34,991 bases of DNA from Alphaproteobacteria bacterium (GTDB taxonomy: Bacteria > Pseudomonadota > Alphaproteobacteria > GCA-2731375), in the NCBI GenBank assembly GCA_046582595.1, contig JAYGEB010000363.1, forward strand, positions 1 to 34,991, in the 5' to 3' direction. Positions 1,916-34,991 of this stretch are shown here, piece by piece. A program made the translations under genes and the position numbers. The notes beneath the pieces were generated by a model. The model saw nothing but the letters and a program-made list of their open reading frames with translations. It was not told the origin of the DNA and searched no databases. How positions within the stretch are numbered: the stretch's first letter is position 1; each line of letters opens with the position of its first letter.

Positions 1916-3268
1916 CTAGCTCCCCAAATTGGTCAGATAAGCGGCGATGGCCCCGGCGGCGGTCTTGCCGTCCTGGATCGCCTGTACCGTCAGATCCGCG
2001 CCAGCCACGCAATCGCCCCCCGCCCAGACATCGGGCAACGAGGTTCGGCCTGTTTCATCAACGGTAATACGCCCGCCCGCCAGGTCCGGACCGCTATCGG
2101 CTAGGGGCACGAACGCCTGGCCCACCGCCTTGAAGACCATGTCGCAGGCAATGGCTTGTTCGCCACCCGTATCCACCAGCGCGCCGTCCGCGCCTAGTTC
2201 CACGCCCTGGAAGACCGCCCGGCCGACCCCGCCCTCGCCCTCCAGCCGCACGGGCCGCAGCCAGTGCTTAAGCCGCACGCCGTTGGTCTGGGCGAATTCC
2301 TGCTCATGGCGCGTGGCGCCCATTTGAACCGGCCCCCGGCGGTAGACGATGGTGACATCATCGGCGCCAAGACGCTTGGTTTGCACGGCAATATCTATTG
2401 CCGTATTGCCGCCGCCGATGACCACGATGCGGCGGCCCACGGGCAAGGCCGCCAGATCCCCGGCCTGGCGCAGCTCCGCGATGTAGTCGACGGCGTTATG
2501 AACGCCCGCCAATTCGGCGCCCGGCACCTCAAGCGCCCGCACGCCACCCTGCCCCAGGCCCAGAAACACGGCGTCAAATTCGTTGCGCAATCGCGCCAGG
2601 GAGATGTCCCGCCCCAGGGCCTGGCCATAACGGGTTTCGATACCGCCGATGGCGGTGATGAATCTGGTTTCTTCCTGGGCATAGTCATCAGGCACTTTGT
2701 AGGCGGCGATACCGTATTCGTTCAGGCCGCCGGGTTTGGCCCGCCCCTCGAACAAGGTAACGCCGTGGCCCAGGCGGGCAAGGGCATGGGCGCAGGCCAG
2801 GCCCGCCGGCCCCGCCCCCACCACGGCAACGGATTTGCCGGTCTCTGGCGCGCGGGTGAAGGGATGCGGCGCGGCGCGGTCCAGATGATCGGTGGCGTGG
2901 CGCTGCAACAGCCCGATGGCGAGGGGGCGGTCGCCATCGCCGTTACGCACGCAATCGCCCTGGCAAAGAATTTCCGTCGGGCAGACGCGGGCGCAACTGC
3001 CACCCATGATGTTCTCTTTCAGGATGGTCATGGCGGCGCCCGTAAGATTGGCGGTGGCGATGGCGCGGATAAAGCCGGGGATATCGATGCCCGTGGGACA
3101 GGCGGCGATACAGGGCGCCTCATAACAGAAGTAACAACGATTGGCCTCGGCCAGCGCGCCGGCTTCATCAAGGGGCACATGCACGTCGGCGAAATTTTCG
3201 GCCAGGACCGCCCGGCTCAATCGTCCGGCCTGAATATCCACCCCATCGGTCATTGGTTCCCCGCTCAT
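1916..3268 (-). CDS. preT: Dihydropyrimidine dehydrogenase subunit PreT (GltD-like flavoprotein)
   Basis: RCYFCYEAPCIAACP Fe-S motif, GAGPAG and GGGNTAID dinucleotide-binding motifs; ends 4 bp before preA. Start may be 3253. Confidence 0.92.
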   Translation of the reverse strand: MSGEPMTDGVDIQAGRLSRAVLAENFADVHVPLDEAGALAEANRCYFCYEAPCIAACPTGIDIPGFIRAIATANLTGAAMTILKENIMGGSCARVCPTEILCQGDCVRNGDGDRPLAIGLLQRHATDHLDRAAPHPFTRAPETGKSVAVVGAGPAGLACAHALARLGHGVTLFEGRAKPGGLNEYGIAAYKVPDDYAQEETRFITAIGGIETRYGQALGRDISLARLRNEFDAVFLGLGQGGVRALEVPGAELAGVHNAVDYIAELRQAGDLAALPVGRRIVVIGGGNTAIDIAVQTKRLGADDVTIVYRRGPVQMGATRHEQEFAQTNGVRLKHWLRPVRLEGEGGVGRAVFQGVELGADGALVDTGGEQAIACDMVFKAVGQAFVPLADSGPDLAGGRITVDETGRTSLPDVWAGGDCVAGADLTVQAIQDGKTAAGAIAAYLTNLGS

Positions 3269-33961: not shown

Positions 33962-34468
33962 CTAAGCGTTGGAAATACGGCACGACACCTGCAAGCTGAC
34001 TTGGCCATTGCCGGATAGTTTGTCGTAGTTCAAACGCTCTTTCTTGGCTTGCTTGCGAAAGATGGCTTCCAGTTGATCACGGACGCCGGGCTCCAGATCC
34101 TCTGCATCCAAGGTTATCGTCATGGGCAGCTTGCTCACGCGTTTCGCGGGCCGTTTCGCGGGCGTTCGCTTCGGCTTCTTGCCGCCATTGCCAAAGACAT
34201 CGTCCCAGCCCGAACGGTAATCATCGGTCGAGACGGAGGAGAAATAACTGATGGGCCGGCTGGATGTATCGGACTTGCCGCCGCCCCCACCGCCACTGCC
34301 CGCATCGCCACTTGTCTCGGTGCCGGACTCCTTGCTTGACGCCGAGGCTTCGGAGGCTTTCGTTTCCGTCTTTGTCGTTTCCGTCTTTGCCGCTTCGGTC
34401 TTTGTTGCTTCCGTCTTTGTCGATGCGCTTTCGGATTTTTTTGTATCCGTCTTCGGTTTCGTCGCCAT
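33962..34468 (-). CDS. Hypothetical protein with a low-complexity N-terminus
   Basis: Long ORF with T/K/E/S-rich repeats, a Gly linker, YFSSVSTDDYRSGWDDVFG and a globular-looking C-terminus. Confidence 0.7.
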   Translation of the reverse strand: MATKPKTDTKKSESASTKTEATKTEAAKTETTKTETKASEASASSKESGTETSGDAGSGGGGGGKSDTSSRPISYFSSVSTDDYRSGWDDVFGNGGKKPKRTPAKRPAKRVSKLPMTITLDAEDLEPGVRDQLEAIFRKQAKKERLNYDKLSGNGQVSLQVSCRISNA

Positions 34469-34759
34469 AATTGTCTACTTACCAATTCCTGTATTAAGTG
34501 CCTTGGGGCCAACCGACCCCGTTTATCAATATTGCCATGGTTTTCTCAAGCAAAATTTTGCGCCGCCCGTTGACCCAAACCGTCAATCTACATTGGTCCC
34601 GCCGCAAGCCACTATCGCAATCTCTCGCCAGGACCGCCTGAATGAATTGGTTTTGCGGTGACGGCGGCGCGGAATAGCGGCCAGGTAATCAGATATTCGG
34701 AAATGCAGCTATGTTTCCCGGTTCGTTTCAGCAAACAAATGCCTAATACCAAGGTGCGA

Positions 34760-34991
34760 TGATAAAGACTCATATAGACGCATTACGAAGTCTTTCGGGT
34801 AGGAGCGTGTTGCGCCGTGGTACCAGTACCACAAGCGGCGCGCGACACCGCCAAAAGTCTTCGTAATGCGCCGAATTCGGTCGTTTCAGGGGGCCCTCGG
34901 CGGCGTCGTGAAACCTTGAAGGTACTGGCACCGTCGGCGGTTCCACTTCTACCCGAGGGGCCCCTGAAACGATCTATATGGGTCTTTATCA
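34760..34991. repeat. Composite palindrome: two inverted 116-nt structured units around a central CCGAATTCGG
   Basis: Outer 19-bp inverted repeat (18/19), two internal 16-bp hairpin arms and homologous cores; exact symmetry about 34875.5. Confidence 0.9.

Follow-up and report, generated by a model that had tools for sequence, protein, structure and literature searches.

Two hairpins at the end of a contig

The window analysed here is a stretch of 34,991 nucleotides that forms one contig (C203) of an alphaproteobacterial genome, a 4.07-Mb MAG of 523 contigs that is 78% complete and is called the source genome below. Close to its right end, at positions 34779-34972, lie two hairpin units, L on the plus strand and R on the minus strand. 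A sequence-only reading of the window had described these units, noted that they share a fold while their stem sequences differ, and considered a structured or guide-like RNA or a single-stranded DNA substrate resembling attC or REP sites, with no named family to which they could be assigned. This raises the question of what kind of element carries the hairpins and why their fold is conserved. The positions are confirmed, and both units are 92 nt long. The sequence-only reading had missed that they do not stand alone: the window hairpins are the two inverted halves of a multicopy MITE, which is bounded by terminal inverted repeats (TIRs) and flanked by a target-site duplication.

Organisation of the element in the window

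Both hairpins lie inside a repeat of 258-261 bp, where they fill the space between its 32-bp TIRs; the repeat is flanked by a TWA target duplication of 3 bp. An inverted-repeat scan showed a larger palindrome that encloses both hairpins, with an outer arm starting at about 34760 that pairs with the last bases of the window. Complete right ends are present on four other contigs of the source genome (C194, C388, C361 and C20), and the left and right TIRs of the C194 copy are complementary at 31 of 32 positions. The window copy contains the following features:

34744..34746, no strand: left copy of the target-site duplication, 3 bp, TAA, read from the sequence; the right copy lies beyond the contig end
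34747..34778, plus strand: left TIR, 32 nt, tip TACCAAGG, defined by pairing with the right TIR of complete copies
34779..34870, plus strand (sense): hairpin unit L, 92 nt, defined by its fold, by 90.0 bits against covariance model R1 and by covariation
34871..34880, no strand: self-complementary linker, 10 nt, read from the sequence; a 3-bp mini-hairpin in whole-element folds
34881..34972, minus strand (sense), inverted relative to L: hairpin unit R, 92 nt, defined by its fold and by 95.3 bits against R1 on the minus strand
34973..34991, minus strand: right TIR, only the inner 19 of 32 nt, defined by the inverted-repeat scan and truncated by the end of the contig and window

The coding content of this copy is a single open-ended frame of 68 aa without a start. 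Of the genes called in the window, the closest to the element is a minus-strand ORF of 168 aa without assignment (33962-34468), which starts about 275 bp away; a Mrp/Nuo-type antiporter subunit is encoded farther out. The 168-aa ORF is without Pfam match. Its 5' part contains a 15-nt unit repeated six times in tandem (34346-34456), which, judged by eye, would encode a low-complexity N-terminus rich in Lys, Thr and Glu.

Copies, insertion polymorphism and target sites

About 13 near-identical placements of the element are found in the source genome, in which 13 contigs contain at least 80 nt at 95% identity or more and a 252-nt stretch is repeated on 13 contigs at 95-99% identity. Ten of the 13 main placements meet a contig end, and some of them are possibly halves of one copy. 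The same genome also contains shorter TIR remnants at 11 further places, diverged copies with about 68-77% identity and a one-hairpin version (on C336). A mini-element of about 50 bp (C247:29622-29663), in which the left TIR is joined to the tip of a right TIR, represents an internal-deletion derivative. Another deletion form occurs in a related genome (L093, G016:C4, at about 2975-3166), where unit R has lost only its inner part and retains its basal stem. Beside element fragments, at the start of contig C137 and at the end of C54, there are strings which we take to be remnants of sequencing adapters, and which suggest imperfect trimming in the assembly.

The element is present in 17 of 20 other genomes of the genus, with 68-91% identity and often with tens of matches, and in one of four genomes sampled from other genera of the family. 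Pairing of TIRs identified 59 full copies, including one 159-bp form with a single unit. Most of them are 258-261 bp long and extend from TACC to GGTA; a few indel forms range from 248 to 286 bp. The triplets on the two sides match in 45 of the 59 copies (TTA in 25, TAA in 18, TGA and TCA in one each). They are unequal in the other 14, among them both complete copies of the main subfamily in the source genome; this inequality may stem from contigs joined across repeats during assembly or from subsequent change. A C precedes the left triplet in 33 of 58 copies (position -4) and a G follows the right triplet in 29 of 58 (position +4), which indicates C-TWA-G as the target.

Insertion polymorphism is seen at the site of the C388 copy. 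Both flanking genes are kept in three sister genomes (G001, G011 and G015) and the element is absent there, so that the site measures 21 bp in G001 versus 281 bp in the source genome (G000) and is likewise short in G011 and G015. A precise empty site was not recovered at these sister-species sites, the intergenic flanks being too diverged, and no joint across an empty site was found in marine metagenome contigs. When depth is summed over these metagenome contigs, the element exceeds its flanks by a factor of roughly 10-40. The repeat is thus short and non-coding (below about 500 bp), is bounded by TIRs, is flanked by a target-site duplication and occurs in dispersed copies with insertion polymorphism, as is characteristic of a MITE. 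Duplication of TWA or TNA is a mark of the IS5 family, and TWA within C-TWA-G fits the IS427/IS1031-type members of this family.

Fold and covariation of the hairpin units

The two window units have the same fold and different stem sequences. On its sense strand, unit L (plus) folds with -49.9 kcal/mol (z -6.5) and unit R (minus) with -54.8 kcal/mol (z -6.3); none of 200 shuffled sequences was equally stable in either case. Throughout the family, a unit consists of a 20-bp basal helix, an asymmetric internal loop with GTAGGAG on its 5' side and CGACGCC on its 3' side, a middle helix, a small internal loop and an apical helix. A first covariance model, built from 109 units, gave 58-101 bits for sense units and 27-33 bits for the identical places read antisense.

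Covariation was analysed in 142 model-aligned units, 133 of them distinct, from the genus, from other marine MAGs and from one Roseibium chromosome. Although an alignment fitted to a model is biased towards the structure, the margin is large: standard pairs fill 94.3% of 4451 cells, compared with 38.3-46.5% when the partners are slid by 1-3 columns and 66.2% after shuffling, and the covariation score is 0.757, compared with 0.106-0.188 and 0.235, respectively. None of 500 shuffles matched any of the observed covariation measures, and 32 of the 34 pairs show double-sided changes among the distinct units. The conserved fold with replaced stems, originally proposed from the two window units, is therefore far above chance when relatives are added, and the covariance-model search supplied these further homologs with covariation.

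The units are also polar with respect to strand. Among the non-Watson-Crick cells of the family alignment, 403 are G.T and 50 are A.C, an excess which indicates that the fold of one strand is selected. The sense strand is the stabler one in 126 of 131 units, with a mean of -60.4 versus -51.1 kcal/mol. The polarity that had been deduced from the G-T wobbles of the window copy thus extends to the family. Covariation, the excess of G.T and the greater stability of the sense strand together show that purifying selection acts on the fold of one particular strand, in agreement with the proposal of selection on a single-stranded fold.

Some of the finer features that had been proposed as conserved are confined to the window copy. 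The basal 16-nt arms of both window units pair at 15 of 16 positions, with a pyrimidine-pyrimidine mismatch at position 13, exactly as described. In the family, however, this column holds a standard pair in 106 of the 133 distinct units, and the R arm is fully paired in other copies of the source genome. The mismatch is a private decay of the window copy and not a family trait. Conservation of the unpaired parts holds for GTAGGAG and CGACGCC, which are at least 90% conserved across genera and families, but not for TCGG, which pairs with CCGA in most copies and appears unpaired in window unit L through a private G-to-A change. The apical loop, CCAG in the window, had likewise been listed as conserved and is variable across the family.

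The stems of L and R remain dissimilar, although the units are only 10 nt apart. Taken as a single strand, the whole element folds into a four-way junction consisting of the TIR stem, two long arms and the mini-hairpin, with -157.5 kcal/mol as RNA (z -14.9) and -93.6 kcal/mol as DNA (z -13.7). Additional sequence is found at fixed points of the hairpins in some copies. A GC-rich insert of 25-27 nt directly follows the basal stem in unit R of L058 and unit L of L087, and an insert of 9-10 nt is located in the small internal loop of unit L in seven copies (L024, L026 and L059-L063). These recurrent inserts are subfamily markers and identify sites that tolerate extra sequence.

Distribution in Alphaproteobacteria

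A scan of 185,579 species genomes with an exact pattern returned at least 117 stretches. Among the 80 stretches for which titles were listed, the model supported 50; their records are titled Alphaproteobacteria, Proteobacteria, Rhodospirillales, Rhodospirillaceae, Thalassospiraceae, Kiloniellaceae, Pelagibius or Roseibium. The other 30 of these 80 come from different groups, were not confirmed by the model and are chance matches. When one genome per family was sampled from other Alphaproteobacteria, the unit was detected in 12 of 150 genomes at E <= 1e-6; in a phylum-wide sample it was detected in one of 150, and that genome is also alphaproteobacterial. The Roseibium chromosome alone contains 67 unit matches, and matches on the plus and minus strands look interspersed along it by eye.

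In other lineages the elements are also about 260 bp long and have TIRs, but the TIR sequences are unrelated to those of the window element. By eye, the related classes are flanked by TA within CTAG or TTAG, or by TAA, corresponding to TA or TNA duplications at YTAR-like sites. A second covariance model, built from a diverse alignment, located an inverted second unit about 10 nt past the first in every TIR class tried, with just 20 bits for the second unit of locus L292. One-unit forms occur as well and measure about 160 bp, as opposed to about 260 bp for two-unit forms.

A further MITE class with the same units is represented by L142 (5100-5700) and L172 (3000-3368). Its TIRs start with (C)AGTGTCCTGTCCC, and it carries extra GC-rich hairpins between the units. 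On the Roseibium chromosome, a 1155-bp unit is repeated in at least three to five tandem copies (L249-L251, G041:C1:977922-984480). It is made up of what by eye is an IS110-like transposase fragment and an inserted 263-bp unit-bearing MITE; the tandem may be a genuine amplification or have been produced by the assembly. Another alphaproteobacterium has a fluoride riboswitch near a MITE copy (L295, 1-51, minus strand); it matches RF01734 with 43.4 bits, which exceeds the gathering score, and is unrelated to the element.

The search for a parent insertion sequence

The source genome, 5-6 relatives and five good genomes from other families were searched for an autonomous IS with matching TIRs or hairpin ends, and none was found. 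In the source genome, this search is limited by the state of the MAG (78% complete, 523 contigs), in which IS copies often stay unassembled. It yielded two DDE_Tnp_1 hits there, neither with a TIR and one of them (on contig C316) degraded in appearance by eye, and no DDE_Tnp_4 or DUF4096 hit. The DDE_Tnp_1, DDE_Tnp_1_2 and DUF4096 loci of the relatives are also without TIR or units. In the five good genomes from other families, all pairs of plus and minus units are about 100 nt apart and none are separated by 0.6-3 kb, so that no pair frames a gene. Two solo TIR remnants are adjoined by ordinary host genes. A TIR-like string in L118 was considered as an IS end and dismissed as a chance match within a lipoprotein-like ORF.

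The type of transposase is therefore deduced from the target-site duplication and the TIR type. The TIR contains the 9-mer AAGGTGCGA, which also occurs in each of the two ends of E. coli IS5A, at almost the same distance from the tip; it varies among subfamilies of the element. The tip of one related MITE class is, by eye, much like that of an IS427-like IS found in Roseibium and in a member of the genus (G002). This IS is 848-851 bp long (L282, 745-1592; L303, 1402-2252), contains two overlapping ORFs and has a tip of the type CTAGGG(C/T)CTGTGGACAT. The Roseibium chromosome is rich in IS, with 89 DDE_Tnp_1 hits. In four of the five regions fetched, its 848-bp IS427-like IS directly adjoins a MITE that carries the units, with a CTAG common to both. 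As a parent of the window element this IS was rejected, since its ends differ.

Relation to described repeats

The closest counterparts are bacterial MITEs that descend from IS5-family elements and show duplications of TWA/TNA or TA (YTAR). Like these, the present element is small, dispersed and non-coding, has TIRs and a TWA duplication at C-TWA-G, and carries a 9-mer of IS5 ends in its TIR. Unlike them, its interior is a pair of conserved structured modules and not a deleted transposase gene, and a parent IS with matching ends was not found in the genomes searched here. Correia elements (CREE/NEMIS of Neisseria), RUP, ERIC and RPE are short TIR-bounded repeats with AT-containing targets that form long hairpins when transcribed. 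Going by their description only, the hairpin in these repeats is the TIR pairing itself, while the present element contains two separate internal hairpins with conserved asymmetric loops and strong covariation.

Among alphaproteobacterial repeats, Bru-RS1 of Brucella is described as being 103 bp long and as a putative site of insertion for IS711, an element that duplicates TA at YTAR (PMC3163539). Going by description, Bru-RS1 and Bru-RS2 resemble the present element in being intergenic palindromic repeats; they are about 100 bp long, compared with 160 bp for the one-unit and 260 bp for the two-unit form. The Roseibium IS427-like IS that abuts a unit-bearing MITE at CTAG likewise recalls the combination of IS711 and Bru-RS1 in Brucella (PMC3163539). 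RIMEs, Sm-repeats and other rhizobial intergenic repeats are characterised as having no known function and as sharing primary sequence and secondary structure; the likeness to the present element is by that description only (PMC2573895).

A blastn search of the element against 72,556 plasmids gave no match. No fitting family was returned by Rfam, in line with the earlier failure to assign the hairpins to a named family: the last 2 kb of the window gave only chance hits to miRNA hairpins far below gathering scores in Rfam 15, and 13 diverse loci gave nothing on the units. No description of the element was found in the main texts of the open-access papers searched on MITE, IS5, IS427, RIME, Bru-RS and Roseibium.

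Possible functions of the hairpins

We consider it probable that the element is a non-autonomous MITE which is moved in trans by a DDE transposase of the IS5 family, and that the hairpins are most likely cis-acting parts of its ends needed for propagation. The element would then be essentially two transposon ends fused to each other, i.e. two inverted modules of about 92 nt joined by a 10-nt linker, with each hairpin being sense on the strand whose 5' end is at the nearer terminus. Subfamilies differ by compensatory changes and single copies carry private mismatches, a combination which suggests that selection acts on those copies that give rise to new copies; this, in turn, points to the hairpins as cis-acting parts of the ends. 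Also in favour of this role are the loops, which resist the perfecting that palindromes otherwise undergo, and the inward-facing pair of units, which is retained whatever the TIR. The transposition machinery or a host factor could recognise the hairpins in folded single-stranded form, as DNA or as RNA. Given the four-way junction that a single strand of the element can form, the hairpins could also help to bring the two ends together. We know of nothing to show that IS5-family transposases need a folded strand, and to our knowledge no structure-dependent step in DDE transposition has been described for the IS5 family.

A role at the RNA level is the main rival to a cis-acting one, but we regard it as rather unlikely. 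The hairpins would serve as signals for processing, stability or insulation or as a protein-binding module, benefiting the host or dampening the harm of insertion. Both ends carry the sense orientation inward, so that transcripts entering from either flank meet a sense hairpin first. Wobbles of the G.U type, eight times as common as A.C, are consistent with RNA, although G.T is favoured over A.C in folded DNA too. The purine-rich conserved internal loop holds AGGAG, which resembles a Shine-Dalgarno sequence. One marine metatranscriptome run contained contigs in which element sequence is joined to that flanking the C145 and C27 copies; these contigs are short and cover only parts of the element, and since an RNA library can hold DNA, they are no proof of transcription. 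A scan of the element detected no promoter-like or terminator-like site, a U-tract is absent after the hairpins, and no Rfam family fits. Moreover, selection at the level of the host on dozens of copies would not alone yield compensation throughout subfamilies together with private decay in single copies. The core is common to MITEs with unrelated TIRs, which also counts for an RNA role and could equally mean that its function is independent of any one transposase. Another explanation dispenses with function altogether, and we hold it to be improbable: pairing in a quasi-palindrome would be kept mechanically, by template switching or by repair within the hairpin during replication, and simply be inherited by the family. 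Template-switch mutation does make quasi-palindromes more perfect, and because all helices are palindromes in DNA, part of the covariation could arise without selection. Such a mechanism would erase asymmetric loops, however, and GTAGGAG and CGACGCC have remained unpaired and conserved; it yields Watson-Crick pairs and not an excess of G.T over A.C; and it is hard to reconcile with L and R stems that differ at so short a distance.

The proposals of a REP-like, guide-like or attC-like nature did not survive comparison with the family. REP and REPIN sequences that are handled by RAYT enzymes are short palindromes that lack TIRs and a target-site duplication and cluster near a Y1 transposase gene. 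We consider it very improbable that the present element is of this type and is processed in single-stranded DNA form by such a Y1 (HUH) transposase, even though strand-polar hairpins in many copies are what RAYT enzymes use, the conserved loop contains the string GTAG and the genus does contain Y1_Tnp genes (225-291 aa), with one in the source genome (G000:C80:14074-14397) and one to four in three relatives. The present units are 92 nt long and have internal loops, and TIRs of 32 bp together with a 3-bp duplication of a specific target are hallmarks of DDE transposition that are not seen with REPs. No unit was found on contig C80, no Y1 gene lies beside any of the units, and the Roseibium chromosome with its 67 unit matches has only a partial Y1 hit of 22 bits, below the cut-off. 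The idea that variable arms specify partners, either as a guide-type RNA similar to bridge or seek RNA or as a site similar to integron attC, scarcely deserves credence. It draws on the variable helices that flank the conserved loops. The bridge and seek RNAs of IS110/IS1111, however, match target and donor DNA by unpaired programmable loops, while the variable parts of the present units are helices whose arms pair with each other; allowing up to two mismatches, these arms match 0-2 places outside the MITE copies, versus 0-7 for shuffled arms. Integron attC sites form tandem arrays that bound cassettes next to an integrase. The present copies are single, dispersed over contigs and not organised in cassette arrays, and no recombinase gene was seen beside the copies inspected.

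Under the cis-acting reading preferred here, a wider proposal can tentatively be made, which we think possible but do not expect to be the likelier outcome. The hairpin of about 92 nt with its GTAGGAG/CGACGCC loop may be a portable cis-module that has belonged to alphaproteobacterial transposon ends since ancient times and is read in single-stranded form by a transposase or by a host partner. This would explain why the inward-facing inverted pair is kept in MITE lineages with TIRs that have diverged beyond recognition.

Significance

The window hairpins are the body of a mobile repeat and not a lone regulatory RNA gene, although the element could easily be mistaken for an sRNA. The repeat is widespread in marine Alphaproteobacteria, and it breaks short-read assemblies, as indicated by the main placements in the source genome that touch contig ends. 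Covariance models like the two built here could be used to annotate and mask it. The element as such belongs to a known kind; what keeps its structured core so highly conserved is the more interesting question. Strong covariation, strand polarity and conserved loops are all retained in MITE classes that differ in their TIRs. The natural stem variants already constitute a series of compensatory mutations. Should movement depend on the fold, this would mean a structure-dependent requirement in IS5-type transposition; should the hairpins act as RNA, they would represent an RNA module that is carried by transposons and widely spread.
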